Assembly (NCBI GenBank): GCA_964643545.1
Contig: CAZXTE010000001.1
Location: 19,101 to 83,100, forward strand
From: an uncultured Candidatus Saccharibacteria bacterium
GTDB taxonomy: Bacteria > Patescibacteriota > Saccharimonadia > Saccharimonadales > AWTP1-31
DNA length: 64,000 nt
Direction of reading: 5' to 3'
The position numbers were made by a program, and so were the translations under genes. Positions 4,562 to 30,470 of this stretch are shown here, in pieces. The notes beneath the pieces were generated by a model that did not search any database, had not been told where the DNA came from, and saw nothing but the letters and a program-made list of their open reading frames with translations. How positions within the stretch are numbered: position 1 is the stretch's first letter; every line of letters starts with the position of its first letter.

Positions 4562-4712
4562 ATGTTACCAACATTTATACCAAAGATAGTGGCGGTTATA
4601 AAGATGTAAACGATGAATGTTTGAATTCTACAACAACGCCATAGCACTAGTTACAATTCTGTTTTGTGGGGCACATTATGTTAGGATAAATGTACAATTA
4701 AACTTATCCGCG

Positions 4713-5441: not shown

Positions 5442-7675
5442 ATATACTTTTTCCCCAAGGCCTGTGCTTCTCCAAGATTAAGATAGCCGCCAATCGTTAA
5501 CAATAGACCGGCGGCAAAAAGCCCATAACTTATATTCACATACGGTGGGCTGTACGAAAAATAGGTCTTTGACTTTCCCGCTGGCACAGCGACTGCCTGA
5601 AAGATATCTTTCTCTGTTTGGATGGGCCTACTAATATCGTTTACTTTTACTCGCCAACCCGGAAAAGAAAGCTCGCGTCTTATTATGGTCGTCTCTTTTG
5701 GGCAGTCTGCTTCTACAACATCCCTAGATGTATATGTTAATTTGCAATTTGCAATGCTTTCAAAATAGCCTTTCGAGTTTGGTAGTTCAAAAATCTCAAC
5801 AGTTTCGTCGCGGTGAACAAGTTTTAGCCCAAAACTATTACTAAACTTTTCACTAACCTGACCCCGATCTGTGACTAGATATTTAACGCTCAGATTCTCA
5901 AACTCTTTGATATTCCTTCCAAACTCTTCCAAAGCACTTGGCCCCAATGGATCAACACGTGAATAGCCCGTAAAGACTAGCGCGTTAGCGTTTCGATCTA
6001 ATTTATCTGGTATATATTCTGCCCAGTTCTTGGGTACAGGTAAGTTATTCACGTTGATTGACGCTATCTCATAATATGAACCGTAGTTCGGCGCAATTGG
6101 GTGAAGTGTATAGAATCGACTAACCCCTATGTTTTTTTGCAAAAAACTAACGGGCTTCGTGTTTACTTCTGGGATATTTGGCAACGACAGAAATGGGATC
6201 ATAAACAGTACAGCCGAATCAATCAATAATATGAAACCTATCGATTTACTACGCCATTCTTTTTTCAAGAAACAGGCAACAGCAATGCCCACAATCGTCA
6301 TTCCCCACACCACCGACAATACAGCCCAGGAATGATGAGACGAATAATCACCTAGCTGCCGAACTAGATTTCGCGCATAAAGTGCCAAGGAAGCCAAAAA
6401 AAATACAGCAAAGCCAGTTGCTCCGATTATTCTTTTCTTAGTAATCTCTGCTTTTTTGATTGCCTCTAGCCCAAACATGGCTAGAATAATTAAAGCCAGG
6501 CTTAGTGCAGGTATAGAATATCTGTAAAAAGCTATTAACTTCATTCCGGGCAGGACATTAACCATATACTCAACTGGCTTAAATCCGTATATTTTCAAAA
6601 TTATAACCAGCGAGAATGTAGAAAGGTAAAGTTTGTGAGCCAATCGTCTTCTGGAAAATAAACCAAGGAGTGCGGATGTAATAAGAGGCATGGAGATATA
6701 CCCCCCCACATTTGACCAAAATAGAAATATAGCAAGTGCCTTCCCTGTGTCAGAAAAACCAAAAATTGGGCCATAAATATACGGCATAAATAGAGCCGGC
6801 AACGTCTTTATATTGAGTGATACATGGGCATACCCACTGTCCGAGTGGCCACCAGTAGTTGCGTGAGGCAAATACCCCAGGAATGGAACAAGAATAGGAG
6901 CTGACAATAGCAAGCCCAGAATACTAGCAAATAACAGTTTGTAGATAAAAGGCTTCCAGGCACTCCTCTTTATTTGAATCATACGAACAACACCCCAGCC
7001 ATATGCAAATAGTGCGTTAATGTAAGCTGTTTCTGGGAAACCGGAGTACAACGAAAGACTCAGCGCTAACGCAATAACCAGCCATCCACCCCGTCGTTTT
7101 TTCTCAGCTCGGATAAGTGCTACTTCGATGCCCAGTAGCAGCATAGGTAAAAAAGCTATTGGATTAAAAGCAGCATTGGTTAGCCAGGCAAATGCCCCAT
7201 TCAATGCAAAAAGAATTCCACCAATTATAGCTATACTCGAGCTGAGTTTTATTTTTCTCAGTAATAGATAAGTAGTAAACCCAGCAATAAGTTGCAAAAA
7301 AAAGTGCATAATTATGAATCCATTTCCAAAGTACAGCAATAGTACAAGGGGGAAGAACGCTGCTGACTGCATACCCCCAGCCAGTGGTGAACCAATGCCC
7401 TCATAATGGTTCCAGTAGGGTACATCCCCCTGCAGCCAACTCTGGGCCGCCCTGCGGCCAAGCGCTTGAGAAGTAAAACCGTCGTTTGGGTCAATAGTGC
7501 TCTGGCCCCCAACAGGTCCGGGGGTAATACTTGTTGCCAACCCTGAGCGTTGTAGAATGGGGTTCCTGCTTTTGCCCATTATCAGTGGGGTCAAGTTTAT
7601 TAGAAGGATAGCAAGGAATACTACCAAGAATGGCTTTGTGTGTTCTGATTGAAATAATCGCTTAATTCTTGTCAT
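5408..7675 (-). CDS. large polytopic GT-C-like membrane glycosyltransferase (GtrC/YfhO/ArnT-like candidate)
   Basis: 756 aa with at least 12 predicted TM segments in the N-terminal two thirds and a C-terminal soluble domain. It is convergent with the GtrB-like gene and overlaps its 3' end. The start is placed at MTRIKRLF (7675). Confidence 0.55.
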
Positions 7676-7820
7676 ATTTTCCCCAATATTATGCCACAGG
7701 TACGTCAACATACATTCATTATGAGTCACTTTTGTGCAACGGTGTCGGTATTCGGATATGAAGCTAGTTACGCTATAATGGTCTATGTTATAAAAATGGA
7801 ATGGAGAGGTTTTTTATAAG

Positions 7821-8867
7821 ATGAAGGTTTTAATAACCGGTTCTGCTGGTCTGATTGGCTCAGAAGCTGCAAAATTCTTTGCTGAAAAGGGTTTTGAGGT
7901 TGTGGGCATTGACAACAATATGCGTAGTTACTTCTTTGGTGAGGAAGCAAGTACCGAGTGGAATCGAAAGAAAATTGAAACGCAGCTCAATAAAGCCTAC
8001 ACGCACTATAACGTCGATATCCGTGATAACGATGCGGTGGGCAAGATTTTTAAGAAACATAAATTTGATCTAATTATTCATACCGCCGCTCAACCCTCTC
8101 ACGACTGGGCAGCACGCGAGCCGTTTACTGATTTTACGGTTAACGCTAACGGCACACTTGTAATGTTAGAGAACATGCGGCAATTCTGTCCTGAAGCAGT
8201 GTTTATTTTTACCTCTACCAATAAAGTATACGGGGACACACCCAACAACCTTCCTTTGATCGAACTAGATAAGCGCTGGGAACTCCCCGAAGATCACAAG
8301 TTTTACAAGGGCATAGACGAAACAATGAGTATTGACGATTGTAAGCACTCAATTTTTGGTGCATCTAAAGTTGCGGCTGACATCATGGTTCAGGAGTATG
8401 GGAAATACTTTGGCTTCAAGACTGCAGTCTTCCGTGGTGGCTGCCTAACCGGACCATCCCATTCTGGCGCAGAGCTGCATGGCTTTTTAGCTTATCTAAT
8501 TAAGTGTATTGCGAGTGGCAAAAAGTACACGATCTTCGGCTACAAAGGCAAGCAAGTACGTGACAATATTCACTCTCACGATCTCGTAAATGCCTTTTAC
8601 CATGTGTATAAAAAACCTCGTTCTGGCGAAGTCTACAATATGGGCGGTAGTCGTAACTCCAACATATCCATGCTAGAAGCCATCGAAAAAATAGAGAAGT
8701 TATTGGGGAAAAAGGCAAACTACGAACTTTCAGACGAAAATCGTATCGGTGATCATATCTGGTATATATCAGACGTCTCTAAATTCCAAAAACACTACCC
8801 GAACTGGAAGTTCGAATACGATACAGATGCCATCCTAAAAGAGATGTGCGCAGCGGTGCGAGTCTAA
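7821..8867 (+). CDS. NAD-dependent sugar epimerase/dehydratase (CDP-paratose-2-epimerase-like)
   Basis: [10 protein letters not shown] Rossmann motif, STNKVYGD and YxxxK (FGASKVAAD) motifs. Confidence 0.7.
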
Positions 8868-9934
8868 TGCATTATAAAAACATACTCATTACAGGTGGCG
8901 CTGGGTTTGTAGGCTCTAATTTAGCGCTAAAATTAAAAAGCGACTACCCCGAAGTGCATATTATTGTACTCGACAACTTAAAGCGTCGCGGTTCAGAACT
9001 ATCATTGGCGCGCTTAAAAAGCGCTGGCATCGATTTCGTTCATGGCGACATCCGTAACCGAGAAGATTTAGTGGTTGATAGTATTGATCTACTAATCGAA
9101 TGCTCTGCCGAACCGTCTGTTATGGCCGGGATCGATTCTTCGCCAGACTATTTAATGAACACTAACTTGGTTGGAACGCTCAATTGTTTAGAATTAGCAC
9201 GCCACCATAACGCAGCTAGTTTATTCCTATCTACCAGCCGCGTGTACCCCATAAGCCATATTAATAACCTGCAGTTCAAAGAGTCGAGCACACGATTCGA
9301 AATTCTCGATTCTCAAAAAATTCTTGGCGCTTCATCAAAGGGCATTGCTGAAAATTTTCCGCTCGACAGACCACGCTCTCTCTATGGAACAACAAAACTG
9401 GCTTCTGAGATGGTCGTGGCAGAATATATCGATACGTACGGCATGAAAGCAATTGTTAATCGCTGTGGTGTCATTACTGGTCCGTGGCAAATGGGCAAGA
9501 TCGACCAAGGTGTCTTCGTCCTGTGGGTTGCTAAACACTACTTCAAGCAATCGCTGTCCTATATAGGCTATGGTGGTGAAGGAAAACAGGTCCGTGACTT
9601 TATCCATATTGATGATTTGTATACGGCCATAGACCACCAACTCGCGCACTTCGATGATTACAATGCTGGAGTCTTTAATATTGGTGGTGGTGCAGCCAAT
9701 AGCGTGTCTCTCAAGGAGCTGACTACCTTGTGTCAGGAAATTACAGGAAATACGATCAATATTGCTTCCATCAAAGAAGACCGCCCAGCTGATCTGCGGT
9801 TCTTCATTACAGACAGCACGAAATTTCTGGAGAAATCAGGTTTATCGTGGAACAAAGATGCGCGTCAAACGGTTACTGATATTTACAAATGGATTCGCGA
9901 TAATGAAGCGGCCCTAAGACCAATCTTGGCCTAG
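8867..9934 (+). CDS. NAD-dependent sugar epimerase/dehydratase, paralog of the preceding gene
   Basis: ITGGAGFVGSNL Rossmann motif and a YGTTKLASE catalytic motif. The start is the ATG at 8867 (MHYKNIL), overlapping the upstream stop (TAATG). Confidence 0.7.
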   Translation: MHYKNILITGGAGFVGSNLALKLKSDYPEVHIIVLDNLKRRGSELSLARLKSAGIDFVHGDIRNREDLVVDSIDLLIECSAEPSVMAGIDSSPDYLMNTNLVGTLNCLELARHHNAASLFLSTSRVYPISHINNLQFKESSTRFEILDSQKILGASSKGIAENFPLDRPRSLYGTTKLASEMVVAEYIDTYGMKAIVNRCGVITGPWQMGKIDQGVFVLWVAKHYFKQSLSYIGYGGEGKQVRDFIHIDDLYTAIDHQLAHFDDYNAGVFNIGGGAANSVSLKELTTLCQEITGNTINIASIKEDRPADLRFFITDSTKFLEKSGLSWNKDARQTVTDIYKWIRDNEAALRPILA

Positions 9935-9937: not shown

Positions 9938-10681
9938 ATGAAGTTATCGATTGTCATACCGGCACACAACGAAGAGGGCTCTATTGCAACCACCGTCAAC
10001 GCTTTTCATACGGAACTTACCAAGGCAAAAATCCCGCACGAAATACTTGTGGTTAACGACAACAGCAAAGATAAAACTGAAAAAATATTAAAAAACATCT
10101 GCAAAAAAATACCCGAGGTGCGCTACGTAAACAACGTTCCGCCCAATGGTTTTGGGTTTGCTGTGCGAAAAGGGCTGGAATCATACACCGGTGACTGCGT
10201 GGCGCTGGTCATGGCTGACATGTCCGACCGCCCTATGGATCTCGTTGCTTATTATCGAAAAATGATCGAGGGCAACTACGACGCCGTTTTTGGCTCCCGT
10301 TTTATAAAAGGTGGCAAGACTATTAACTACCCACGTACAAAGCTCCTTATGAATCGCTTGACCAACAATATAATAAAGATCCTGTTCGGCATTCGCTTCA
10401 ATGATGTCACCAATGCCTTTAAGCTCTACAAGAGAGAAACCATAGAAGGCGTAAAGCCATTCCTAAGTCATCACTTTAACCTAACGGTAGAACTCCCCCT
10501 CAAAGCGATTGTTCGTGGATACTCGTACGGTGTGGTGCCTAATTATTGGACCAACCGCACAACCGGCGAGGCAAAGCTTAAACTGAAGGAGATGGGAAGT
10601 CGATATTTCTATATAATTCTATATTGCTTGATAGAGAAGTGGTTATCACGTGGTGATTATAAAAAACCTAACTCACCATAG
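9938..10681 (+). CDS. GT2 polyprenol-phosphate glycosyltransferase (DPM1/GtrB-like), second copy
   Basis: LSIVIPAHNEEGSI, LVVNDNSKDKT and DxD-like MADMSD motifs, with a C-terminal hydrophobic tail. Confidence 0.75.
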   Translation: MKLSIVIPAHNEEGSIATTVNAFHTELTKAKIPHEILVVNDNSKDKTEKILKNICKKIPEVRYVNNVPPNGFGFAVRKGLESYTGDCVALVMADMSDRPMDLVAYYRKMIEGNYDAVFGSRFIKGGKTINYPRTKLLMNRLTNNIIKILFGIRFNDVTNAFKLYKRETIEGVKPFLSHHFNLTVELPLKAIVRGYSYGVVPNYWTNRTTGEAKLKLKEMGSRYFYIILYCLIEKWLSRGDYKKPNSP

Positions 10682-10777
10682 TTTCTGAGTTTATCAACAA
10701 TTCGTTGTATTTCCTTCTATATGCCAGAACGCTTTTTTAAGCTACTATACCTATTAAGATAATTATGGAGATGTTGC

Positions 10778-11443
10778 TTGATGAAAGATTACGTACTTTC
10801 CATTTACGCTGATCGCTTTGATAAGGACGAGCAAAAACGTAAGGTAATGTGGCAGGTTCTCTGCAATGACTACTTTCAAAAGTTCATTGGCAAGAAAGAT
10901 GTCGTTCTTGACCTTGCTGCAGGATACTGTGAGTTTATTAATAATATAAAGTGCGGGAAGAAAATTGCTGTCGACCTAAATATGAAAACCAAGCAGAAGG
11001 CTGCAAAAAATGTAACAGTATACCGAGCGCTCAGTACCGCCCTGCCTAAAAAACTAACCGGTTCGGTGGATGTAGTATTTACCAGTAACTTCTTCGAGCA
11101 TTTAGATAGCAAAAATGAACTAATTGATACTCTAAAAGAGATACACCGAGTACTGAAACCAGGTGGTAAACTTATGGTTTTACAGCCCAATATTCGACTC
11201 GTCGGTAATCAGTATTGGGACTACGTTGACCACACATTGCCATTAACTGAAAAGAGTCTTGAAGAAGCTTTTCACTTAACTGATTTTGAACAATGGTTTC
11301 GTAAAGTAAGGTTTTTGCCATTTACAGCAAACTCACGTATGCCGGCGTATCCATTTCTAATTCGTCTGTATCTTCGACTTCCATTGGCTCAGTTTATTAT
11401 GGGTAAACAAACTTTTGTTATAGCTAAAAAAGTTAAGGCTTAG
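10778..11443 (+). CDS. class I SAM-dependent methyltransferase
   Basis: VLDLAAGYCEF (motif I) and VLKPGGKLMV (post-II motif). Confidence 0.7.
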   Translation: MMKDYVLSIYADRFDKDEQKRKVMWQVLCNDYFQKFIGKKDVVLDLAAGYCEFINNIKCGKKIAVDLNMKTKQKAAKNVTVYRALSTALPKKLTGSVDVVFTSNFFEHLDSKNELIDTLKEIHRVLKPGGKLMVLQPNIRLVGNQYWDYVDHTLPLTEKSLEEAFHLTDFEQWFRKVRFLPFTANSRMPAYPFLIRLYLRLPLAQFIMGKQTFVIAKKVKA

Positions 11444-12681
11444 TGCTTATTTAGACAAGTCAACCAATCACTACTCGGATTTACTTCGAGACAAACTCGC
11501 TCGCCAGAGTGAGCATTGTTGAATTTCTGAACTGAATTTGAAAAGTTTGTATACGATTTTTGTGGATAAGAGAAATCACTCGGTATTCCCAATAGAACCA
11601 TGCACAAGAGCAAGCCAACTGCTAATGACCTTGCATACTTATTAGCATACGAAAAGAGGAATAGTATTGCCGAAAAGAGGCCAATCATTGGAAGCCAAAA
11701 ATAACGATTTCCCCCTCCACTAACCATCGACGTCCACTGGGGTACGGTGTTGCTAGCCTGGGGTTTTATGAGCGCTACAAAGAAAATCAGCCAAGTGAAG
11801 ATTATGATCATCTTATACTTATACGGTGCTTTGATGAGAACAAAGATTAATAATGCTAATGTAACCGCACCAAGCACCGCAAACCAACCTTGATTGGCTA
11901 AAGCGTATTTGTTAATAGTCTCCATGCCTACCAGCAGTCCGCCAGTAATTCTACTACCTATTATAGCCAGAAACTTGACTGGGCTCGCGCCCAATCCCTG
12001 CGTAAATCTGGCTTCGGGCTTAGACAGAAGATACACAATTGTCTGCACGACCGACGTAACAGAATATACAGCCAGGTAGGGAAAGCCGACTTTCCCCCTC
12101 TTCCACAACCAGAAAGCGATTGGCAGGACTATGATGGAAAAAGGACCGGTTAGACCAGATATAAAAAGTACGCTGGTGTCAAAGACTTGCCAAAGTTTCG
12201 ACTCAGTTTTGCCAGAGATTAAAATCATGAACACGATCAACGCTAGGTGCCAGTTCATGTTGGTCAGGTTGGCGTTAACCTCAAAACTATTGGGCATCAG
12301 CAGATAGAAGGCTGCAAATAGTGACGAGTTTCGGGTTGAGCCAGTAAGCTTTTTGAATCGGTCGGTAAACAACAAAACAACAGGTAAAATCTGGACTACT
12401 GTTGCCGATAACACAAAAAATAATGGTGCTAGCTTCAACGGCAAGACCATGGATGTCGATGCGACCAGACGCATGCCGACTTGTAGGCTGCTGGCGTAGG
12501 GTTTAAAGATTGACAGAAGAATACCGTCGTTATAGGCCTGGCCGAACCACTTTATACCATCCTCTCCCCAGAATTGGGCATGCCTAAAAACGCTTGGATC
12601 GCGGAGGTAGACAAGCAAAAAACTGCCCAAAAATACTCCCAGAAGGAGCAGTATCTTGTTCTTAGTTAAATAATTCCGCAT
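11440..12681 (-). CDS. polytopic membrane protein, paralog A (uncharacterized family, possible GT-C)
   Basis: 413 aa with about 10-12 TM segments. It shares N-terminal (AQFWGEDG.../AQFWAEDF...) and C-terminal (NPSSDWLTCLNKH / NPDEAWKTCLKKN) signatures with the ORF at 16561..17853. Confidence 0.6.
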   Translation of the reverse strand: MRNYLTKNKILLLLGVFLGSFLLVYLRDPSVFRHAQFWGEDGIKWFGQAYNDGILLSIFKPYASSLQVGMRLVASTSMVLPLKLAPLFFVLSATVVQILPVVLLFTDRFKKLTGSTRNSSLFAAFYLLMPNSFEVNANLTNMNWHLALIVFMILISGKTESKLWQVFDTSVLFISGLTGPFSIIVLPIAFWLWKRGKVGFPYLAVYSVTSVVQTIVYLLSKPEARFTQGLGASPVKFLAIIGSRITGGLLVGMETINKYALANQGWFAVLGAVTLALLIFVLIKAPYKYKMIIIFTWLIFFVALIKPQASNTVPQWTSMVSGGGNRYFWLPMIGLFSAILFLFSYANKYARSLAVGLLLCMVLLGIPSDFSYPQKSYTNFSNSVQKFNNAHSGERVCLEVNPSSDWLTCLNKH

Positions 12682-12706
12682 TTGTGGATAGTATATAATA
12701 GTTCTC

Positions 12707-14329
12707 GTGCTTACAATAGATTGGTGGCCGCTACTAAGTGTAGCGCTTTATATTTCTTCATTTTTTAGTCTAAGTCTTTTTTTTGGCCTCAAAGCCCATC
12801 AGAAAAAACTCATTCCCGATAACTTTTTGTACATGGGTGGCCTAGCCATTTGTCTAGTCATCTGCTATTCTCAGTTTTACATTTTTGCCATTAGCCCAAA
12901 GCTTGGTCACGTCACGACTATTCTATTTATTCTCGCAGGCTTAGCAGTTTTGCCATTCCTGTTACGAACGCTTCTGATTCAAAAAACGATTTGGCAAATA
13001 ACTAAGAAGTACTTCTTTGTACCTTTTTTGATAATAGTTCTCCTCACTTTTCTGTATTCGTATTTCTTATTCGGCTGCACCACCAGCAAATACACTATTG
13101 ACCAATGGGGTGAAGTTCAAAACCCCGCCTTTTGTCACATATCGAAACTACCTATAGATAATGCTCTGCCCTACATCTACAGCGAGAAGGTTAAGAACAA
13201 TGATGCTAAATCATTGGTGATTGATTGGAGCATAGCCGACCGGCCACCGCTGCAAATTGCTACAACTTTGCCAATTTCTGATTTAGCCAAAACCACTGGC
13301 AGACCACAGCGTTACGCTATGTATTACGTCTTTTCCATCACATTACAGCTAAGCTGGATTGCGGTCATTTGGGGCATTTTAACAAAGCTTCTCCAGCGAA
13401 AATTACATGTCTGGGGTTCTATGTTGGCCCTGTCTGCTACGGGGTTCTTATACATTAACTCCGTTTTTGTGTGGCCAAAACTGATCTCAGCCAGTTTATT
13501 CGTATTTGGCGCCTTCATACTTTTTGAAACTAGCACCAAGAGACGAAACTTATTTACTTACAAGTATCTTACCCTAGCGGCAATCTCGTTCGCGCTGGCA
13601 TTACTCTCGCATACGGGCGTGTTGTTTACGTTAATAGTCCTTGCGCCGCTGGTTGCTTTTGACCTTTGGCGTAGTCAAAAAATAGACCAGAAGTTATTGA
13701 AGAGTCTCATAGTACCGACTGCTGCTGCCCTCATCTTGCTAGTACCATGGCAAATCACCAAAAATCATTTAATTTCTCATGATCGACTCATCAAGTGGCA
13801 CTTCGCAGGTGTAATCTCTGCGGAGGACCAGCGGGGAACTCTCAAAACTATAGTTGACGAGTACAAGAAGTTGCCCCTCGCAGCCTGGGCACACAATAAA
13901 CAGAAAAATATTGAAGCACTCTTTACGGGGGGCGTAGGCAACAGTTGCGACTCTGCAATTCGCAGGACCCTTGACGATTGCCACGTAGCCGTATGGAGAG
14001 ATCGAGAGTTCTTCAGCTCGTTCTATTCTTTAGGATTGTTTTCCATTGGATTCCCCGTAATTATCTGGCTTGGCCTTAAGAAGAAGTTGGACAGGCTTGA
14101 TATTATGCTACTTTTACTTACAGTACTGTACTTTATAGTTTGGGTGCTGTTGATGTTTATCCCGGGAGCAACCGTGATACATCAAGGGTCGTATGCTTCT
14201 GCTCTGTTTCTATTTATTTTGCTCATCAAGAATCTATCGCTAATGCCCGACGCAGCGTTTATAGCTTTTGTCGTTCTACAGCTCACCATATTTGGGTTAG
14301 CCTGGCTTCGACCTTTCGGCTTTTTGTAA
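12707..14329 (+). CDS. polytopic membrane protein (GT-C / PMT-like candidate)
   Basis: 540 aa with 12 or more hydrophobic segments. Family assignment is weak. Confidence 0.55.
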   Translation: MLTIDWWPLLSVALYISSFFSLSLFFGLKAHQKKLIPDNFLYMGGLAICLVICYSQFYIFAISPKLGHVTTILFILAGLAVLPFLLRTLLIQKTIWQITKKYFFVPFLIIVLLTFLYSYFLFGCTTSKYTIDQWGEVQNPAFCHISKLPIDNALPYIYSEKVKNNDAKSLVIDWSIADRPPLQIATTLPISDLAKTTGRPQRYAMYYVFSITLQLSWIAVIWGILTKLLQRKLHVWGSMLALSATGFLYINSVFVWPKLISASLFVFGAFILFETSTKRRNLFTYKYLTLAAISFALALLSHTGVLFTLIVLAPLVAFDLWRSQKIDQKLLKSLIVPTAAALILLVPWQITKNHLISHDRLIKWHFAGVISAEDQRGTLKTIVDEYKKLPLAAWAHNKQKNIEALFTGGVGNSCDSAIRRTLDDCHVAVWRDREFFSSFYSLGLFSIGFPVIIWLGLKKKLDRLDIMLLLLTVLYFIVWVLLMFIPGATVIHQGSYASALFLFILLIKNLSLMPDAAFIAFVVLQLTIFGLAWLRPFGFL

Positions 14330-14367
14330 TTTACAATTCTAGTTTAAAATGGTAAACTATAACTGTT

Positions 14368-14892
14368 ATGGTTAAAAATAAAAAGGTTAGAAAGACTAAG
14401 ATAATTGCACTCACCGCCGCTGTGCTGCTTCTAGCTGGCGGCTCTGCCTTTGCCTACGTAAAAACCAGACATCCAGCAGCCCCGGCGCCTCTGCCGGTCG
14501 GTGGAGTCAACCTTGATAAGCCAACTGCAGAAGAAATAAAAGAAACTGAAGAATTCAAGAAGCAGCAAGCAAAAGCGACGACTAACCCGCCCACCCAAAC
14601 GGCTTCTAACAACAATGCCAACGTTGTCATAACGACCATAACCACAACCGAAGCTAGGGGCTATGTATCGGGCACAGTTGAAGAAGGTGGCACCTGCACG
14701 CTAACGCTCACAAGAGGTACGGCAAAAGTAACAGCGAGCTCAACTGGCATACTCGATGTCAATAAAACGACCTGCTCCCAAATCACAATCGGCCCGGGTC
14801 AACTAAGCTCTGGTGAATGGGATGCAGTACTCAGTTACACTTCTCCAAGCATAAGTGGATCTTCTGCGGTCCAGAAACTAAAGGTACCCTGA
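14368..14892 (+). CDS. secreted/anchored Thr/Ser-rich protein
   Basis: N-terminal K-rich segment plus a hydrophobic signal/anchor (IIALTAAVLLLAGGSAFA), then Pro/Thr-rich linkers (TNPPTQTASNNNANVVITTITTTEA). Confidence 0.55.
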   Translation: MVKNKKVRKTKIIALTAAVLLLAGGSAFAYVKTRHPAAPAPLPVGGVNLDKPTAEEIKETEEFKKQQAKATTNPPTQTASNNNANVVITTITTTEARGYVSGTVEEGGTCTLTLTRGTAKVTASSTGILDVNKTTCSQITIGPGQLSSGEWDAVLSYTSPSISGSSAVQKLKVP

Positions 14893-14895
14893 GCT

Positions 14896-16560
14896 ATGTT
14901 GAGACCATTAAAGAGATTTGGTGCATTTATCAGCTTGCTAACCGCAGCGGTACTAATCGTGTTTGGACTTCAGCCAGCCTACGCAGCATCTGGCAACACC
15001 TTCAAAGCTGATCGTATTATTGATGACGCCATATTTTTTAACACAGCCCAGTTGTCCGTTACAGACATACAGAATTTCCTAAATAGTAAGGTCCCAACGT
15101 GCGACACCAATCATACCGGCAGCGGAAGCAACCAACCGCCGTTTACCTGTCTCAAGGACTACTCACAAACCATCAGCGATAGGGCGGCAGACCAGTATTG
15201 TACTGGTGCCGTAAGCGCTGGCACAAAGTCGTCGGCACAGATTATTAAAGATGTCGCAAATGCCTGTGGAATCAATGCTGCTGTACTAATAGTATTGCTC
15301 CAAAAAGAACAGTCCTTAATTACTGATACGTGGCCATGGGCATCACAGTACGAAAAAGCTACCGGTTACTATTGCCCCGATGACCCATCTAGGCCGGGCT
15401 GGTGTGACCCGGAATATGCAGGCTTTTTCAACCAAGTGTGGTATGCTGCCAGACAATTCCAGAGGTACGTGAAACAGCCGGGTTCTTTTAACTTTGCTGT
15501 TGGAAGAGCAAGCAGTGTACTCTTCCAGGCAAACCGCCCTAGTTGTGGTGGCACAACCCTTACTATGCAAACCCGAGCAACCGCAGCACTTTACAACTAT
15601 ACACCGTACCAGCCTAGTCAGGCTGCTCTAGACTATCTCTACGGCGTAGCCCCTGGTGACCCTAACACACCCGGCACGCCAGCTTATTGTGCAGCTTATG
15701 GGAACAGGAATTTCTGGCGACTCTTCAATGATTGGTTTGGGCCAACTACTTCAGATAACAATACGGATGTTATAAGTTTTGTTCGGCTTAACCATGCATC
15801 AGGGAACGTTGAGGTAGTAGGCTATACCTCAATAAGCGAGTACTCTTACCCCGCTCGGCATAACTTCTCTAGCTATCCCTCCGTACCAGCCGATGGCAAT
15901 GTGATACCCCTATTCTGGCCTAACGGTGACCTCGTATTCGTGAGACTTAATCATGCCTCAGGAAATGTCGAAGTGGTGAGCTATAGTGCGAATAGCGGAT
16001 ATAAACAACTTGTTAATATTGCAATAACTGGCTACCCCTCCGTGCCTGGCGATGGCAATGTTATCCCAATGTTTAAACCTAACGGGGATTTAAGTTTCAT
16101 TCGACTAAACCACAGTTCAGGAAATGTCGAAGTGGTGAGCTATGGCCCCGGAAGTAATTATAGAAGTCTCACCAGAATTCAAAATTCTAGCTATCCCTCC
16201 GTACCAGCCGATGGCAATGTGATACCCCTATTCTGGCCTAACGGTGACCTCGTATTCGTGAGACTTAATCATGCCTCAGGAAATGTCGAAGTGGTGAGCT
16301 ATAGTGCGAATAGCGGATATAAACAACTTGTTAATATTGCAATAACTGGCTACCCCTCCGTGCCTGGCGATGGCAATGTTATCCCAATGTTTAAACCTAA
16401 CGGGGATTTAAGTTTCATTCGACTAAACCACAGTTCAGGAAATGTCGAAGTAGCTACCTACAGCGCCTCTAGCAACTACAAGCAACTTATTGATTTACGC
16501 CTGACTGGTTACCCTAATGTAGCTAATGATGGTGCCGTAATTCCGCTATTCACCAGGTAG
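14896..16560 (+). CDS. secreted protein with a Cys-containing N-terminal domain and five or more ~53-aa beta-propeller/lectin-like repeats
   Basis: Signal peptide (LLTAAVLIVFGLQPAYA). The motif F[VI]RLNH[AS]SGNVEV recurs five times together with DGNVIP[LM]F.PNGDL. The domain between the signal peptide and the repeats contains LLQKEQSLITD. Confidence 0.7.
   Translation: MLRPLKRFGAFISLLTAAVLIVFGLQPAYAASGNTFKADRIIDDAIFFNTAQLSVTDIQNFLNSKVPTCDTNHTGSGSNQPPFTCLKDYSQTISDRAADQYCTGAVSAGTKSSAQIIKDVANACGINAAVLIVLLQKEQSLITDTWPWASQYEKATGYYCPDDPSRPGWCDPEYAGFFNQVWYAARQFQRYVKQPGSFNFAVGRASSVLFQANRPSCGGTTLTMQTRATAALYNYTPYQPSQAALDYLYGVAPGDPNTPGTPAYCAAYGNRNFWRLFNDWFGPTTSDNNTDVISFVRLNHASGNVEVVGYTSISEYSYPARHNFSSYPSVPADGNVIPLFWPNGDLVFVRLNHASGNVEVVSYSANSGYKQLVNIAITGYPSVPGDGNVIPMFKPNGDLSFIRLNHSSGNVEVVSYGPGSNYRSLTRIQNSSYPSVPADGNVIPLFWPNGDLVFVRLNHASGNVEVVSYSANSGYKQLVNIAITGYPSVPGDGNVIPMFKPNGDLSFIRLNHSSGNVEVATYSASSNYKQLIDLRLTGYPNVANDGAVIPLFTR
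15871..16451 (+). repeat. perfect direct tandem duplication, 318-bp unit (copy 1 15871-16188; copy 2 16189-16451, 263 bp, 100 % identical)
   Basis: Direct comparison of the two stretches shows identity at every base until 16452. The duplication is in-frame (106 aa) inside the repeat protein gene. Confidence 0.9.
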
Positions 16561-17853
16561 TTAGTTCTTCTTCAGGCACGTTTTCCACGCTTCGTCGGGA
16601 TTTATATCAAAGCAATATTGTTGCCCAGGACGTAAGGTCGAGAACTCGTTAGCTTGGCCTCTGAAGTTAAACTTCTTCAACTCTTTTACTCTAAAGTAGA
16701 ATGGGAAAAATAGCACGTATAAAGCCACCAAAGCTGAGGCAATCTTGCCCATGTTATTCCTGGTAAGTGCCGCAAAGTAGACCAGTATCAGCAGCCAGCA
16801 GAAGATTGGGATGAAAAAGTATCGTGCGCCGAAGGAATTTAGTTGTAACATATCCCAGAACTGCACAATCGGAACAGTTTGAGCTCGTACGAATGTCGAA
16901 GCATAAATAAGAGACCCGAATAATATCACTGCTCGCATATAGATGTTGGCCTTGATGAAGGCGTAGATCGTCATAATAATAGCGAACATACCCAACATAA
17001 ACATCTGGGGCGACCCTGCTATCTCTTTGGTGATTATTTTCTCGCCTGCGACTGGCAAAGCAAAGAACCTCATACCGGTAATCTTAATCGGTTTACTATA
17101 GTTATTTATTAGTTCTCTTTTCTGAGATACCAGACTGGCAGTTCTTTGTTGGGGGGCCTGTACGTAGACAGCTATCTGAATGAGCGCACAAGCAACTATA
17201 GCAGCAGCCTTAATCCAGTGCATTCTATTTTTGCTCTTTTGAGCAGTAATTAAGTATGCAGCCGTTAGTGCTAGGAAGGGAGCAAACGGCCCACTCAACC
17301 CAGACACAATAAGCACAGTAATATCAAATACCAACCATTTCTTCTGCGTTTTTGGGCCCCTAACTAGTACCAAAATTGCGGCAGCGGCCAAGAACCAAAT
17401 AGTATTTGTAAAATTTCCATAAATCTCAGCAATGCCCGGAATAAGTAGGTATAGAAAAGTGAATGTCATCTTTGATCGCACACTGAATTTTTTTATAAGG
17501 GTGCTATCCGACCAGAATATAAACAATGGTAGGACCATGACCAGAATGGCCACTAAATTTGCCGCCGCTGGGGCGAATCTTAGGGGTACCAACAGCAGCG
17601 GTAGAGCTACCAATCGAGGGAAGAAGGGCAAGATTCCAGAATAAGTCTTGAAGATACTGTAGCCGCCACGCATATAGGCATCTCTATAAAATACGGCGAA
17701 GTCTTCTGCCCAAAACTGAGCATTAAAAAGCAGCTCCGGCCTTCGTAATACGATTACGCCAACGCCAATCAAACACACTACTACCGCTTTTTTCATATCT
17801 GAAAGTACGACAAATTTACGCCAAATGTTAGCTGCCAGCGACTTTATTTCCAT
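16561..17853 (-). CDS. polytopic membrane protein, paralog B (same family as 11440..12681)
   Basis: 430 aa. It shares N- and C-terminal signatures with paralog A. Confidence 0.6.
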   Translation of the reverse strand: MEIKSLAANIWRKFVVLSDMKKAVVVCLIGVGVIVLRRPELLFNAQFWAEDFAVFYRDAYMRGGYSIFKTYSGILPFFPRLVALPLLLVPLRFAPAAANLVAILVMVLPLFIFWSDSTLIKKFSVRSKMTFTFLYLLIPGIAEIYGNFTNTIWFLAAAAILVLVRGPKTQKKWLVFDITVLIVSGLSGPFAPFLALTAAYLITAQKSKNRMHWIKAAAIVACALIQIAVYVQAPQQRTASLVSQKRELINNYSKPIKITGMRFFALPVAGEKIITKEIAGSPQMFMLGMFAIIMTIYAFIKANIYMRAVILFGSLIYASTFVRAQTVPIVQFWDMLQLNSFGARYFFIPIFCWLLILVYFAALTRNNMGKIASALVALYVLFFPFYFRVKELKKFNFRGQANEFSTLRPGQQYCFDINPDEAWKTCLKKN

Positions 17854-17857: not shown

Positions 17858-19756
17858 CTATTTTAATCTAGCATTAGCGATGTCACGACGAAACTCTGGG
17901 TGATAAAACGGGTCATCTTTAATGAGAGTGCCCCACTTATTTAACATAAGCTTTATCTCTTTATCGAACAGTTCTAGGTCGCGTTGCTTAGAACCAGGCT
18001 GGCCAATAGAGACTGACTCGTGGTGAAACAGATTTACGTGCGGCAGGTACACATTCCTATAACCTTTATCGTATAGCTTTAAACAGAAGTCAACATCGTT
18101 AAAGGCAATCTTAAAGATGGGGTCGAATCCATTAACTTTATTGAACTTGGAGACACCAACCATCACACAGGCTGCAGTTACAGCTGTGAAGTTCCGCGTG
18201 CCACCGACATATAAATTTTGAATGGGGCTCTGGGGTGGTTTATCTATATAAGCCGGGAAGAAATGCCCGGCTATGCCTGGGGTGCCATCCTGGCCACCAA
18301 CACCAAGGATAATGCCTGCATGCTGCAGCCTCTTGTCTGGATAATATAGTTTGCAGCCCACTGCACCAACGTCATCTTGTTGGCTGTAGGCAACCATCCC
18401 TTGGATCCAATCCGGAGATATGACCTCAGTGTCATTGTTGAGGAATAGTAGCTGTGAACCACTTGAGTTATCCGCTCCTAGATTGCAGGCTGCGGCAAAG
18501 TTGAACGGCTTTTCCCACTTCACCACCCTCAGGCCTTTTCCGAGCGATTTGTACCTTTTGTACAGATCCCACACTTTGTCGTCTGTACTGCCCGTGTCTA
18601 CTATTACTACTTCGTAATTATTATAGGTTGTTTTTTCTTTAATTGACCTTAAGCAACGCTCAATATAACCAAATTGATCTTTGGTTGGGATAACGATACT
18701 TACTAACGGATTATCACTTTCATACGCAACCCTCCACATAGAGTATGGAATTTGCCAAGAAATCTCGGCTTTCATGTTACGAGCCTTGACATCATCTTGT
18801 AAGGCTTTCTTCTGATTAACATAGGCGTACTCTTTGGAAGCAGGATTTTCAGCAGTCGAATTTTCAGTTTTCCGCCAACTGTAGAGTACCGTGGGTATGT
18901 GCTGAATTTTGTCAGTCTGGCGAGTAACTCGAAGGAATAGGTCCCAGTCTTGAGCACCTTCGTAACCAGGTCGAAAACCGCCAACTTTCTCAACTAACGA
19001 ACGTCTAATGACCGCAAAGTGAGTTATGTAATTGATTGATCGTAAAAATTCAAAACTCCAATCTGGTTTAAAGAAGGCATCTTCATGCACCTTGCTTTGT
19101 GAATCTATCTTGTCTTCGTCGCTATAAACAAGGTCGGCTTTTTTTTCATTAATAACAGTCGCTGCGTGGAATAAAGCATTTGGCCATAGTACATCATCGT
19201 GATCGAGCAGAGCTATAAATTCACCACTTGCTAGCTTTAATGCTGAGTTTGTGGCATGACAGATATGACCGTTTTCTTGGCGTATGGTGTACTTTATTCT
19301 GGGTTCTTTTTGGGCGTAAGCCTGAATCGCTCCAATTACTTTTTTATCGGTCGAGGCATCATCGGCAATGCAAAGCTCCCAGTTATCGTAAGTCTGGGCT
19401 ATAACGGACTCAATGCACTCTTTTAGGTGCTGAATGTTAGGATTGTAGGTTGGCACTAATACACTGATTAGAGGGCGAGATTTGAAATTCTTTTGGTTTT
19501 TCACTTGCTGCTTCAAAATACCACCCGTTGGGTAATTCTTTTTAAACCACTGTCTGTATTCTTTGTCGATTTGAATCTTTGTGTGAGCCGCTAGGGTTAA
19601 TGAATCTATGCGCGAAATGAGTTTTTTTGCACCCGGTAGACGCCGGGTATAACGATTAATAAAGATGTGTTTGCCGAAGATCTTGATGTGCAGAATTCGG
19701 ATTATAATTGGATATATCCCCTGCTTTACTTTCTTTACTATAGACGTCATTTTCAC
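17858..19756 (-). CDS. tandem double GT2 glycosyltransferase (ABC-pathway polymerising GT candidate)
   Basis: Two GT2 cores: ISVLVPTYNP...CIADDASTD and VSIVIPTKDQ...VIVDTGSTDD, with a DxD (DHDD). Confidence 0.8.
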   Translation of the reverse strand: MKMTSIVKKVKQGIYPIIIRILHIKIFGKHIFINRYTRRLPGAKKLISRIDSLTLAAHTKIQIDKEYRQWFKKNYPTGGILKQQVKNQKNFKSRPLISVLVPTYNPNIQHLKECIESVIAQTYDNWELCIADDASTDKKVIGAIQAYAQKEPRIKYTIRQENGHICHATNSALKLASGEFIALLDHDDVLWPNALFHAATVINEKKADLVYSDEDKIDSQSKVHEDAFFKPDWSFEFLRSINYITHFAVIRRSLVEKVGGFRPGYEGAQDWDLFLRVTRQTDKIQHIPTVLYSWRKTENSTAENPASKEYAYVNQKKALQDDVKARNMKAEISWQIPYSMWRVAYESDNPLVSIVIPTKDQFGYIERCLRSIKEKTTYNNYEVVIVDTGSTDDKVWDLYKRYKSLGKGLRVVKWEKPFNFAAACNLGADNSSGSQLLFLNNDTEVISPDWIQGMVAYSQQDDVGAVGCKLYYPDKRLQHAGIILGVGGQDGTPGIAGHFFPAYIDKPPQSPIQNLYVGGTRNFTAVTAACVMVGVSKFNKVNGFDPIFKIAFNDVDFCLKLYDKGYRNVYLPHVNLFHHESVSIGQPGSKQRDLELFDKEIKLMLNKWGTLIKDDPFYHPEFRRDIANARLK

Positions 19757-20742
19757 TTCTTTCTCTTAATTACCCTCTTGGTTGCTCTAAGTAATTTGGT
19801 GACCTTCCAAGATAATGATCGTTGCATTGCCGTATTAGATGCCTCAAGGGTTTGTACTTGTAATGAAAGGAGGTTTATTGAGTGCTGCATACTATTTTTT
19901 TGATTATCAATTGCGTTCTTTACTATCTCTGTTAGGGCTAGCGGTAGTTTGTTAACAACACTGACAGTTTTAGTGGCAACCTTCGGATAATACTCATCCA
20001 TGGCTTTCGCTACTCTCCTAACTTTACTTTGATTCCCAGAAATAAAGTAGATTACTCTATAAGAATTAAACTCGTCAACATCACTATCTAGCAGCTTGGT
20101 GTTTTCATTATAAAATCGATTAATCTCACCTGCTTTCATCGATGTAGTGTCGAGTACGCTAGATAGAAAAAAGATAGTCTGCATGGTAACCCAATTCTCA
20201 ACTTTATTACTATAGAGTTTACTAAAGTATAGTTTTTTAGAATGAATCACTGACTCTATTTTTTGTTGAGTTGGTAAGACATTGTCTATATGTTCTGCTA
20301 GCCACTGATGTCCTTTTCCTTCAAATGATTTGAAAAGCGCATTTAAATTCTTCTCGGCTTCGGTAACCACACTTGAAGAATTTTCGAACGGACAGCACAA
20401 GAAAAATCCTTCTTTAGAGACACGTATGCATTCTAGAATAAAATCTGCTCGTTTTTCTGTAGATATATGCTCTAAAACATCAAAACTAACCACTACATCA
20501 AATTCCTCATTTTTAAAGGACATTTTTGTTCCATCGCCCTTGACGTAGTTATCTTCCTCTACATCAAAAACATCGAGTACCGTTACTTTATCTTGCCTCG
20601 AAAAATCGTGGGTTTTTCCCTTGTATCCTCCAACGTCAAGTACTTTGAGAGTTTTACCCTTTGGCCTAATTACTCCTACTAAGTCTGCGGTTATATTTTG
20701 ACGAGAATACTGATCGAAAGGTAAGTCTAGGCGTGCGTTCAT
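19753..20742 (-). CDS. class I SAM-dependent methyltransferase (possible glycan chain-terminating modifier)
   Basis: LKVLDVGGYKG and VVSFDVLEHI motifs. The gene is immediately upstream of, and overlaps, wzt. Confidence 0.7.
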   Translation of the reverse strand: MNARLDLPFDQYSRQNITADLVGVIRPKGKTLKVLDVGGYKGKTHDFSRQDKVTVLDVFDVEEDNYVKGDGTKMSFKNEEFDVVVSFDVLEHISTEKRADFILECIRVSKEGFFLCCPFENSSSVVTEAEKNLNALFKSFEGKGHQWLAEHIDNVLPTQQKIESVIHSKKLYFSKLYSNKVENWVTMQTIFFLSSVLDTTSMKAGEINRFYNENTKLLDSDVDEFNSYRVIYFISGNQSKVRRVAKAMDEYYPKVATKTVSVVNKLPLALTEIVKNAIDNQKNSMQHSINLLSLQVQTLEASNTAMQRSLSWKVTKLLRATKRVIKRKK

Positions 20743-29741: not shown

Positions 29742-29755
29742 CGTTTCTCCTTTGG

Positions 29756-30130: not shown

Positions 30131-30149
30131 ACGGCTTAAGACCTTCTAT

Positions 30150-30287
30150 CTAGTGCGTTAGACGCACGCGACCTTTGATACGTCGGCTTTTTAGAACTCG
30201 ACGACCGGCTTTACTGGCCATTCGTTTTAGGAATCCGTGCTCGCGTGCGCGGTGGCGTTTTTTTGGTTGGTAGGTTCGTTTTGGCAT
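30150..30287 (-). CDS. rpmH: 50S ribosomal protein L34
   Basis: [45 protein letters not shown] is 45 aa. The track ORF is a spurious 5' extension. Confidence 0.9.
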
Positions 30288-30470
30288 GTGTGCTCCTGTT
30301 GTCGTTTTTAGTAACGTGAAATTAACAATGTTTACCCCACAAATTCTAGCAAGTTTTCCACTGGTCGCCAACTACTTTCCACAGATTTCAAGATGGAGCA
30401 TTGCCCTGTGTACAAATATTCATCTGTTAGGCGCAATTCATTTAGAAATCACCTTTCGCAATTGTTTTCT

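Follow-up and report, generated by a model that had tools for sequence, protein, structure and literature searches.

The interval between positions 9,938 and 17,853 of the window (the whole 64-kb stretch of DNA that was analysed) probably encodes the central part of a three-component system for extracytoplasmic glycosylation, set in an ABC-transporter-dependent, rhamnose-type envelope polysaccharide locus. The acceptor of its three predicted GT-C proteins is most likely a cell-wall polysaccharide of rhamnose type that is exported, and not the adjacent secreted proteins. All the ORFs named in the initial annotation were recovered at their positions in an ORF check of the window. However, protein O-glycosylation, the role proposed there, did not hold up well, because the module lies inside a dTDP-rhamnose, Wzm/Wzt (ABC-transporter) glycan locus, a context that favours a polysaccharide over a protein as the acceptor. 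The genes concerned are the following:

1863–2300, plus strand: GtrA-family putative polyprenyl-P-sugar flippase, 145 aa (PF04138), outside the interval initially annotated
4617–5441, plus strand: second DPMS/GtrB/ArnC-like GT2, 274 aa (Pfam GT2, E 9.6e-32), convergent with the YfhO gene
5408–7729, minus strand: YfhO-family GT-C glycosyltransferase, 773 aa (Pfam PF09586 YfhO, E 7.9e-18, above cut-off)
7821–9934, plus strand: two SDR-type NDP-sugar epimerase/dehydratase genes, 7821–8867 and 8846–9934 (Pfam Epimerase, E 1.4e-41 and 6.3e-38)
9938–10681, plus strand: polyprenyl-phosphate-sugar-synthase-like GT2, 247 aa (Pfam GT2, E 3.8e-24)
10778–11443, plus strand: SAM-dependent methyltransferase, 221 aa (Pfam Methyltransf_11, E 1.1e-10)
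11440–12681, minus strand: paralog A, 413 aa, predicted GT-C-fold membrane glycosyltransferase of an unannotated family, with an A-E40-D41-G motif in the first outer loop
12707–14329, plus strand: 540-aa predicted GT-C-fold glycosyltransferase of a second unannotated family, distant relative of PMT_2/ArnT
14368–14892, plus strand: 174-aa membrane-anchored protein (hydrophobic segment 12–30; two-Cys domain)
14896–16560, plus strand: 554-aa secreted repeat protein (Cys-rich N-terminal domain and five 53-aa repeats)
16561–17853, minus strand: paralog B, 430 aa, predicted GT-C of paralog A's family (28 % identity to paralog A)
17858–19756, minus strand: double-GT2 glycosyltransferase, 632 aa, candidate polymerising enzyme (two Pfam GT2 domains, E 3.3e-51)
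19753–20742, minus strand: methyltransferase, 329 aa, candidate chain-terminating capping enzyme (Pfam Methyltransf_11, E 8.8e-9)
20739–22744, minus strand: Wzt (401 aa, C-terminal Wzt_C) and Wzm (266 aa), polysaccharide ABC exporter (Pfam)
24296–25618: Wzy_C (ligase-like) protein

The locus thus holds four GT-C genes from three sequence families that are mutually unrelated (YfhO, the paralogs and the 540-aa protein), and its nucleotide-sugar genes comprise, by protein family, rml, UDP-glucose dehydrogenase, a UDP-xylose-synthase-like gene and the two SDR genes. Both paralogs are on the minus strand, which the initial annotation does not mention, unlike the genes for the GT2, the methyltransferase and the 540-, 174- and 554-aa proteins of the interval.

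None of the three membrane proteins (paralogs A and B and the 540-aa protein) had a match in Pfam, NCBIfam or the PDB sequences, so the initial statement that they do not obviously match known families was correct. Their polytopic architecture was evident from hydropathy and, for paralog A and the 540-aa protein, from AF2 secondary structure; the 540-aa protein had been assigned 12 transmembrane segments, but its AlphaFold model shows more than 12 membrane helices. In Foldseek comparisons, the three proteins were more similar in 3D to solved GT-C enzymes than to other membrane folds, with modest E-values of about 1e-3; AglB and STT3 were among the top structural matches for the paralog family, and ALG12 and ArnT outscored the Pmt proteins. 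Sequence similarity to ArnT was undetectable. On these models, all three are confidently predicted to be GT-C glycosyltransferases, a class that takes its sugars from lipid carriers, the GT-C fold prevailing over the transporter fold in the comparison that the initial annotation had suggested. Conserved acidic residues in the first extracytoplasmic loop, also suggested there as a check, were found in both families. In the paralog family, E40 is conserved in 100 % and D41 in 98 % of 158 sequences, opening a loop helix (residues 40–52) that follows TM1 in paralog A according to its AF2 secondary structure; paralog B retains the A-E-D motif. In the 540-aa family, D151 and D178 are invariant among 29 sequences and lie in the loop after the helix 93–120. 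An outer-face position of these residues is suggested by hydropathy, by the positive-inside rule and by secondary-structure strings.

Paralogs A and B are indeed paralogous, as their BLASTP identity extends over the full length (E 7e-40), and the 540-aa protein is unrelated to them in sequence (hhalign probability 0.5 %). An exhaustive profile search with the paralog family identified 8,273 clusters at 50 % identity, from Saccharibacteria, Cyanobacteria, Acidobacteriota, Nitrospirota, Chloroflexi and others, and the copies of Pfam-A and NCBIfam that were searched contain no model for it. The family is therefore undescribed, as had been surmised, yet not rare, and the locus contains two new GT-C families, one of them with more than 8,000 clusters. 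One member of the paralog family is fused to WecG/TagA, an enzyme acting on Und-PP-linked intermediates.

The description of GT2 9938–10681 as DPM1/GtrB-like was borne out by a search of PDB sequences, in which Pyrococcus Dol-P-Man synthase (5mlz, E 8.3e-18, residues 1–221), GtrB (5ekp) and ArnC matched best. Its best NCBIfam matches, PgfS, AglJ and Dol-P-hexose transferase, were all under their cut-offs (68 bits against 500 for PgfS, the top model), and it passes no curated equivalog model in that library (PgfS, AglJ, ArnC, PpgS and others). Hydropathy revealed no hydrophobic segment, so GtrB-like C-terminal transmembrane helices are absent and the architecture resembles that of PpgS or human DPM1, which are helix-less. 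By sequence, this protein is a probable member of the DPM1/GtrB/ArnC-type polyprenyl-phosphate glycosyltransferase subgroup. GT2 4617–5441 contains a single hydrophobic segment, which is N-terminal, and best matched DPMS 5mlz (E 1.2e-16), ArnC and GtrB among PDB sequences and AglJ, PgfS, ArnC and PpgS, all under cut-offs, in NCBIfam. ORF 1863–2300 belongs, from its match to Pfam PF04138 (GtrA_DPMS_TM; E 1.5e-17, 64.3 bits, cut-off 26.1), to the GtrA flippase family, and its position after rmlA is the same in loci L006 and L007. The similarity of the GT2 proteins to DPMS, GtrB and ArnC, together with the presence of a GtrA gene, assigns the system to a type already known, three-component extracytoplasmic glycosylation. 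The SDR pair is probably co-transcribed with GT2 9938–10681, situated directly downstream, and the order SDR-SDR-GT2-methyltransferase is kept in loci L006, L008 and L011. The initial assignment of methyltransferase 10778–11443 holds in Pfam; gene-order maps showed conserved synteny of this gene with the GT2 and members of the paralog family in Saccharibacteria, and Nostocales loci contain a small methyltransferase (Pfam-checked) beside a DPMS-like GT2 and the paralog family.

Downstream of the interval, the exporter genes matched ABC_tran (E 4e-22), Wzt_C (E 9.1e-15) and ABC2_membrane (E 7.6e-20), and all the components of an ABC-transporter capped pathway are present: Wzm, Wzt with Wzt_C, and an adjacent methyltransferase (19753–20742) that, by analogy, would cap the chain. 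In locus L037, a methyltransferase domain and a double GT2 are fused in one 850-aa protein. Paralog B is separated from the double GT2 by a 4-bp gap and is the last gene of the minus-strand operon wzm-wzt-methyltransferase-double GT2-paralog B, whose upstream genes overlap each other and whose order is also present in L009. In 24 of 79 loci, a homolog of the double GT2 of ca. 597 aa is encoded no more than 3 kb from the paralog family, and Wzt, a double GT2 or a small DPMS-like GT2 is at most four genes away in 50 of the 79, which come from many phyla. The set Wzm-Wzt-methyltransferase-[paralog family]-double GT2 is tightly recurrent in Acidobacteriota, Pyrinomonadaceae among them, and Saccharibacteria have it in the form of the paralog B arrangement. 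Of the 26 loci in which Wzt is at most four genes away, just 4 also have a DPMS-like GT2 at that distance, so that a lipid-monophosphate donor is assumed, not seen, for the Wzt-linked subtype.

In the explanation that we favour, rml, UDP-glucose dehydrogenase, the UDP-xylose-synthase-like protein and the two SDR proteins would provide nucleotide sugars, whose identity is presumed. At the cytoplasmic face, the soluble GT2 9938–10681 and GT2 4617–5441 would put a sugar on polyprenyl phosphate, the adjacent methyltransferase may modify the lipid-linked sugar and GtrA, going by its family, would flip it over the membrane. The double GT2 would make the main chain in the cytoplasm, with methyltransferase capping and Wzm/Wzt export, the Wzt_C domain recognising the cap as in the E. 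coli O9a-type paradigm. Outside, the YfhO protein, paralog A, the 540-aa protein and paralog B would move sugars from lipid donors to the exported glycan, each presumably with its own acceptor or linkage specificity, and catalysis might proceed via the conserved acidic residues with which the first helix of the outer loop begins, E40-D41 for the paralogs and D151 for the 540-aa protein.

Rhamnose-rich wall polysaccharides of Gram-positive cocci, such as those involving S. pyogenes GacI/J/K/L and L. lactis CsdA/B with CflA and WpsJ, are among the closest known parallels (PMC9574508). Their loci share with this one rml, a Wzm/Wzt-type ABC exporter, cytoplasmic rhamnosyl/GT2 polymerisation, a GT-A polyprenyl-P-sugar synthase, a flippase that serves several GT-A/GT-C sets, and polytopic GT-C partners, here predicted, that decorate the exported chain and lack sequence conservation (PMC9574508). 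Unlike them, this locus belongs to a CPR/Saccharibacteria host and has four GT-C genes of three unrelated families, Wzt_C with a putative capping methyltransferase, as in the O9a-type system, and an extra methyltransferase adjoining the lipid-sugar synthase; a scan of large ORFs in the window did not turn up an LCP ligase gene. Three-component logic acting on ABC-transporter-exported, chain-terminated glycans is likewise shared with Gtr (GtrA/GtrB/Gtr*) O-antigen glucosylation, Klebsiella O2 galactose addition and the GT136 pentofuranose system (PMC11127046). Both GT136 and the present families were recognised as GT-C through structure prediction, since they lack sequence similarity to existing GT families (PMC11127046). 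Nevertheless, the donor synthase here is DPMS/GtrB-like instead of a PRPP-dependent polyprenyl phosphoribose synthase, the flippase is of GtrA type instead of MATE, and the GT-C proteins lack a large carbohydrate-binding domain and are unrelated in sequence to Gtr* and apparently also to GT136.

The initial reading, in which a GT-C protein transfers the GT2-made polyprenyl-P-sugar to Ser/Thr of the 174-aa and/or 554-aa proteins, is unlikely, although several observations agree with it; the transferase would most plausibly be the 540-aa protein, their operon partner. The 540-, 174- and 554-aa genes follow one another on the plus strand as a single unit, 38 and 3 bp apart. Seven or more further loci from Saccharibacteria keep this trio, usually with the GT2, the methyltransferase and a paralog, at identities that go down to about 40 %; this points to some functional link to the secreted proteins and counts against the explanation favoured above. 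Additionally, three-component-system GT-C enzymes glycosylate proteins too, including Ser/Thr-rich regions of membrane-anchored proteins, and the S. mutans pgf genes adjoin those for adhesin substrates (PMC12041528). The streptococcal models for this reading, PgfS/PgfM1 (with PgfE and PgfM2 in S. mutans) and GtrB/PgtC2, resemble the locus in having a GT2 lipid-sugar synthase, an epimerase, two membrane GT-C and adjoining genes for exported proteins (PMC12041528). PgfS is also the best NCBIfam match of the GT2, but far under its cut-off; PgfM1, PgfM2 and PgtC2 belong to the YfhO family (PMC12041528), whereas PF09586 had no match in paralog A, paralog B or the 540-aa protein. The actinobacterial Ppm1/Pmt (GT39) analogy fails on membership: none of the three membrane proteins matched PMT (PF02366) or PMT_2 (PF13231) above threshold, MIR domains were not found, Pmt proteins are outscored in structure, and the context is polysaccharide synthesis, not Sec-coupled protein mannosylation. 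PMT_2 matched only 1 of 29 scanned members of the 540-aa family alignment; this member and one further syntenic homolog scored 24.8 and 25.1 bits, just under the cut-off of 26.1.

Features of the secreted proteins themselves also speak against a role as substrates. The 174-aa protein consists of an N-terminal transmembrane segment, a charged/Pro/Thr linker with short Thr runs and a conserved domain of ca. 85 aa, with C110, C136 and W151 invariant in an alignment with three syntenic homologs. Its initial description as Thr/Ser/Pro-rich holds only to a moderate degree (S+T 23 % versus a background of 12 %): the richest S/T stretch sits inside the two-Cys beta-type domain, Ser/Thr enrichment is not a consistent feature of the linkers in its homologs, and neither this nor the 554-aa protein has a long poly-Ser/Thr disordered tract of the kind carried by the streptococcal substrates (PMC12041528). 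It is a candidate accessory or carbohydrate-binding subunit, or glycoprotein substrate. The 554-aa protein does have repeats, as noted initially, of FG-GAP-like type (a syntenic homolog in L005 matches FG-GAP_3, E 1.4e-9), and its conserved N-terminal domain has 779 homologs, with SLH, LGFP, CW_binding_2, PF18885 or FG-GAP modules in their C-termini. As SLH, LGFP and CW_binding_2 are known wall-binding modules, it is better seen as anchored in the wall than as a substrate dedicated to glycosylation; it is probably wall-associated, and its repeat domain could bind the polymer. Finally, the synteny of both proteins is limited to Saccharibacteria, and in other phyla the two GT-C families occur within Wzm/Wzt clusters without comparable secreted proteins nearby. 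Both proteins are most likely wall-associated accessories rather than primary acceptors.

It is less probable still that the paralog family is an en-bloc transferase or extracytoplasmic polymerase of lipid-linked oligo- or polysaccharides, attaching the exported, capped chain to its final acceptor, rather than a transferase of single side-chain sugars. The recurrent Wzm/Wzt arrangement, the scarcity of DPMS-like GT2 genes close to the family in the Wzt-linked loci, the WecG/TagA fusion, the matches to AglB and STT3 and the use of lipid-linked oligosaccharide donors by the Lactococcus GT-C proteins WpsJ and WpsI (PMC9574508) are consistent with it. However, GtrB and GtrA genes often lie apart from the gene of their GT-C, which makes it weak evidence that they are missing nearby; the proteins are small (413–430 aa), with a C-terminal extramembrane element of only ca. 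45 aa and no large periplasmic domain of oligosaccharyltransferase type; tight linkage to a DPMS-like GT2 and a methyltransferase, the logic of a monosaccharide donor, characterises the paralog A subtype; and the locus already encodes a Wzy_C protein. It is similarly doubtful that the family constitutes a dedicated, previously unrecognised core part of a widespread Wzm-Wzt(Wzt_C)-methyltransferase-double-GT2 pathway, handing the capped polymer to wall, lipid or protein; if true, it would represent a ligase or en-bloc transferase of GT-C fold that serves ABC-transporter glycans, not one more side-chain decorator. That the membrane proteins are non-enzymatic transporters, flippases or structural proteins with GT-C-like helical-bundle features would accord with their modest Foldseek E-values and lack of sequence-level matches to any characterised glycosyltransferase in Pfam, NCBIfam and PDB sequences, but is very improbable.

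The ArnC/ArnD/ArnT pathway for lipid A aminoarabinose differs in that the monoderm-like Saccharibacteria envelope has no lipid A, and the window contains no formyltransferase or aminotransferase. Mycobacterial PpgS/Rv3779 is a further system for comparison.

The seven open reading frames that the initial annotation had grouped as a putative polyprenol-phosphate/GT-C protein O-glycosylation module (9938-17853) are all present. Strands, absent from that annotation, divide them, because both paralogs are on the minus strand and the other five genes on the plus strand:

9938-10681, plus strand, GT2 glycosyltransferase (confirmed by Pfam)
10778-11443, plus strand, methyltransferase (confirmed by Pfam)
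11440-12681, minus strand, membrane protein, paralog A
12707-14329, plus strand, 540-aa membrane protein
14368-14892, plus strand, secreted 174-aa protein
14896-16560, plus strand, secreted 554-aa protein
16561-17853, minus strand, membrane protein, paralog B

At its 3′ end, paralog A shares 4 bp with the methyltransferase gene, and its start lies only 25 bp from the 540-aa gene, which runs divergently, so that promoters must sit within coding sequence. The 540-aa, 174-aa and 554-aa genes, spaced 38 and 3 bp apart, form a plus-strand unit, and paralog B belongs to a tight minus-strand operon, wzm-wzt-MT-GT2x2-paralog B, in which genes overlap or are separated by a 4-bp gap. Paralog A is inverted here, whereas it is co-directional in loci L005, L006, L008 and L011 from other genomes.

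Paralogs A and B are truly related, as had been proposed (28 % identity over their full length, E 7e-40). The 540-aa protein showed no sequence relationship to them (hhalign profile-profile probability 0.5 %, not significant); that alignment placed the E-D-G motif of the paralogs opposite D151-N152, which we regard as anecdotal. None of the three membrane proteins matched any Pfam or NCBIfam model, or any PDB sequence with either single-sequence or family-profile queries, and a Pfam scan of all members of both family alignments gave isolated sub-threshold matches only. Membership in the PMT or YfhO families was thus rejected. Two members of the 540-aa family reached 24.8 and 25.1 bits against Pfam PMT_2 (cut-off 26.1), near-threshold scores by which this family is distantly related to the ArnT/PMT_2 group.

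Homologs were gathered, alignments A1 and A2 were built, and structures were predicted for paralog A and the 540-aa protein. The 540-aa prediction (91.5 / 0.93) had GT-C folds throughout its top 21 structural matches, the best being ALG12 (19.1), ArnT (18.6), Pmt4 (16.7), Pmt2 (15.4) and ALG9 (15.2), after which the score fell to 6.2. For paralog A, STT3, ArnT, ALG9, PimE and PglB alone were retrieved by Foldseek at a probability of about 1 (TM 0.39-0.48), whereas MFS transporters gave TM values below 0.2. The transporter fold, named in the initial annotation as the finding that would speak against GT-C enzymes, is therefore rejected, and the GT-C reading holds.

The acidic first-loop residues anticipated for such enzymes are also conserved. 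Among 158 aligned members of the paralog family, each 23-37 % identical to paralog A, an A-E-D-G motif is nearly invariant (E40 100 %, D41 98 %, G42 97 %), with conservation also at R326-Y327 (98-100 %), R108 (99 %), D168 (96 %), R71 (93 %) and E134 (91 %); A-E-D is retained in paralog B. In the model of paralog A, the loop that connects TM1 (7-27) with TM2 (82-103) contains a short helix (40-52) headed by D41, which is where the catalytic acid of GT-C enzymes is classically found. In the 540-aa family (29 sequences), D151 and the block D178-R-P-P-L-Q183 are invariant, and D151 starts a modeled loop helix (150-163) downstream of helix 93-120. Four helices precede the D151 loop and the loops at 29-39 and 86-101 are positively charged, suggesting a topology with the N-terminus out and three extra N-terminal helices before the canonical GT-C entry helix.

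The surface-glycan locus occupies the first 26.7 kb of the window. It contains genes for RmlD, RmlA, GtrA, a UDP-xylose-synthase-like SDR, UDP-glucose dehydrogenase, GT2 enzymes, YfhO and two SDRs and, after the module, for a double GT2, a methyltransferase, Wzt with a Wzt_C domain, Wzm, a rhamnosyltransferase-like GT2, a Wzy_C protein and a GT4. Among PDB sequences, the GT2 at 9938-10681, which has no transmembrane helix, best matched Pyrococcus dolichol-P-mannose synthase (E 8.3e-18, residues 1-221), GtrB and ArnC, and its top NCBIfam models were PgfS, AglJ and Dol-P-hexose transferase, all far under their cut-offs. A second small GT2 (4617-5441), convergent with a bona fide YfhO GT-C gene (5408-7729), had the same match profile, and a 145-aa ORF (1863-2300) belongs to the GtrA family (E 1.5e-17, above the cut-off). 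Together with the three GT-C proteins, these genes provide a concrete, testable inventory of two lipid-sugar synthases, one flippase and four GT-C transferases beside an ABC-exported, capped polymer. The Wzy_C product (24296-25618) is a membrane protein that resembles O-antigen ligases, in a CPR bacterium presumably of the monoderm type; the large window ORFs scanned included no LCP-family ligase.

A word-indexed search found just 30 relatives of paralog A; an exhaustive profile search retrieved 8,273 clusters (50 % identity) of the paralog family at E <= 1e-3 and 2,460 at E <= 1e-30. When one genome per species was scanned with a motif seed, 392 relatives were obtained, from Saccharibacteria, other Patescibacteria, Nostocales and Leptolyngbyaceae cyanobacteria, Acidobacteriota, Nitrospirota, Chloroflexi, Planctomycetota and Gammaproteobacteria. 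The source names seen were all "hypothetical protein" and the copies of Pfam-A and NCBIfam searched hold no model for the family, which bears out the suspicion that it was undescribed. The scan was seeded with an 8-sequence subset and required the motif [PA]QFW[AG]EDG, so that the 80 loci it returned are skewed toward paralog-A-like members. After ORF calling and clustering, a family gene was found in 79 of these. A Wzt of ca. 407 aa with a Wzt_C domain was present in 31 of the 79 loci (23 within 3 kb of the family gene), a double GT2 of ca. 597 aa in 26 (24 within 3 kb), a DPMS-like GT2 of ca. 256 aa in 24 (20 within 3 kb) and Wzm in 20 (nine within 3 kb); in 50 loci, Wzt, the double GT2 or the DPMS-like GT2 was situated at most four genes from the family gene.

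Three arrangements recurred. The first, Wzm-Wzt-MT-[family]-double GT2, occurs in Pyrinomonadaceae and others and is that of paralog B in the window, whereas paralog A follows the arrangement of Saccharibacteria, SDR-SDR-GT2-MT-[family]-540-like-174-like-554-like. The third, GT2-[family]-MT-DPMS-like GT2-polysaccharide deacetylase, is found in Nostocales and resembles the ArnC/ArnD/ArnT logic, in which a lipid-linked N-acyl-aminosugar is deacylated before transfer; in loci L013, L015, L016, L019, L021 and L022 the methyltransferase has ca. 225 aa and the deacetylase is Polysacc_deac_1 plus DUF3473. In Trichormus, the family gene lies downstream of Wzm-Wzt-GT-WsaF-like GT, and in a 676-aa protein (P0120) the family domain is fused to an N-terminal WecG/TagA GT26 domain (E 2.8e-50). 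The domain also occurs in two 982-aa proteins, P0179, whose N-terminal ca. 570 residues had no Pfam match, and the product of one gene in L039. Distant members of the 540-aa family are located in clusters of the type Wzm/Wzt(Wzt_C)-MT-GT2-rml that also encode a Bac_transf initiating enzyme and a Wzy_C protein and contain no 174-like or 554-like genes.

In the 174-aa protein, a single transmembrane segment at the N-terminus is followed by a charged/Pro/Thr linker and then by a conserved domain of ca. 85 aa with two invariant Cys and a Trp. Its description as Ser/Thr-rich holds for overall composition (S+T 23 % vs. 12 % background) but not for any long poly-Ser/Thr tract, there being none, and the S/T-richest window falls in the conserved domain. 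The 554-aa protein is indeed a repeat protein, its Cys-rich N-terminal domain being followed by five 53-aa FG-GAP-like repeats. Within its gene (15868-16451), a 318-nt unit encoding two repeats occurs in tandem (1.8 copies, 100 % identity); the older 159-nt repeats resemble one another at only about 68 %. The duplication is either very recent or an artefact of assembly. The N-terminal domain (residues ca. 31-290; 14896-15770) carries near-invariant K137-E138-Q139, YNYTPY and GNRNFWR motifs and has 779 homologs, mostly from Saccharibacteria and other Patescibacteria, that end in SLH, LGFP, CW_binding_2, PF18885 or FG-GAP modules; such mixed wall-binding C-termini are typical of the modularity of wall-anchored exoproteins. 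No Pfam model covers this domain, and a 23-sequence profile of the protein and its homologs (alignment A5) found no relative in the PDB, a PP2A match (E about 0.1) being dismissed as a chance motif match. The domain may represent a wall-active enzyme not yet characterised and, to judge from its sequence, gives the impression of a lysozyme/SLT-like wall hydrolase. Since at least seven further loci of Saccharibacteria show 174-like and 554-like genes in synteny with a 540-like gene, some functional link is likely, the candidate roles being substrate, accessory or carbohydrate-binding subunit, and polymer-binding wall protein.

The system matches the well-described three-component glycosylation paradigm, in which a GT-A enzyme attaches a sugar to polyprenyl phosphate, a flippase carries it to the other side of the membrane and a GT-C enzyme transfers it there. 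This is documented for O antigens, including chain-terminated ones exported by ABC transporters (PMC11127046), and for rhamnose-rich wall polysaccharides of Gram-positive bacteria, where GT-C partners lack sequence conservation and several GT-A/GT-C pairs share one flippase (PMC9574508). The GT-C enzymes probably decorate the exported polysaccharide, because both families are linked to Wzm/Wzt polysaccharide modules across phyla, paralog B sits in the wzm-wzt operon and the secreted neighbours lack long Ser/Thr tracts. Proteins can also be targets, as in streptococci, where GtrB/PgtC2 and PgfS/PgfM1 glycosylate Ser/Thr-rich disordered regions and pgf genes adjoin those of their adhesin substrates (PMC12041528); O-glycosylation of the co-encoded proteins is nonetheless unlikely here. 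En-bloc transfer or extracytoplasmic polymerisation, as by WpsJ/WpsI, appears less likely still, and a non-catalytic role of the membrane proteins is very improbable.

The mechanism class and the GT-C fold are already known and the three-component concept is well established, so the gain is in annotation and enzymology rather than in a new principle. What is new are two GT-C sequence families without a Pfam-A or NCBIfam model, one of them very large and with a sharp A-E-D-G signature, and a glycan locus, in a CPR bacterium, with unusually many GT-C genes. Were the paralog family defined, for instance as a candidate for a new GT-C family in CAZy, its members would lose the "hypothetical protein" label and point to extracytoplasmic glycan modification across many genomes. 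By the names that its homologs carry, the locus comes from an organism of the Saccharimonadales/Saccharibacteria. Saccharibacteria are obligate epibionts whose surface glycans probably mediate host-bacterium attachment and phage recognition and whose envelope biosynthesis is, to our knowledge, almost uncharacterised.

Another secreted protein with FG-GAP repeats (495 aa, 26876-28363) is encoded at the end of the glycan locus; its N-terminal region (GQCRAFVNCVVW ... GTHTFIIVG) had no Pfam match and, by eye, has the look of a CHAP/NlpC-type Cys-His hydrolase. The locus directly adjoins the chromosomal origin region (28360-34355), with genes for a jag/khpB-like R3H protein, yidC, dnaA, dnaN and recF. 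Further on, a type-IV-secretion-like gene set lies on the minus strand (37829-49844) and includes:

41602-43515, minus strand, TraG/VirB4-like P-loop ATPase
44428-45471, minus strand, PrgI-family protein
within 37829-49844, minus strand, 1098-aa protein with no Pfam match
within 37829-49844, minus strand, 1248-aa protein with GDSL lipase and VanY carboxypeptidase domains
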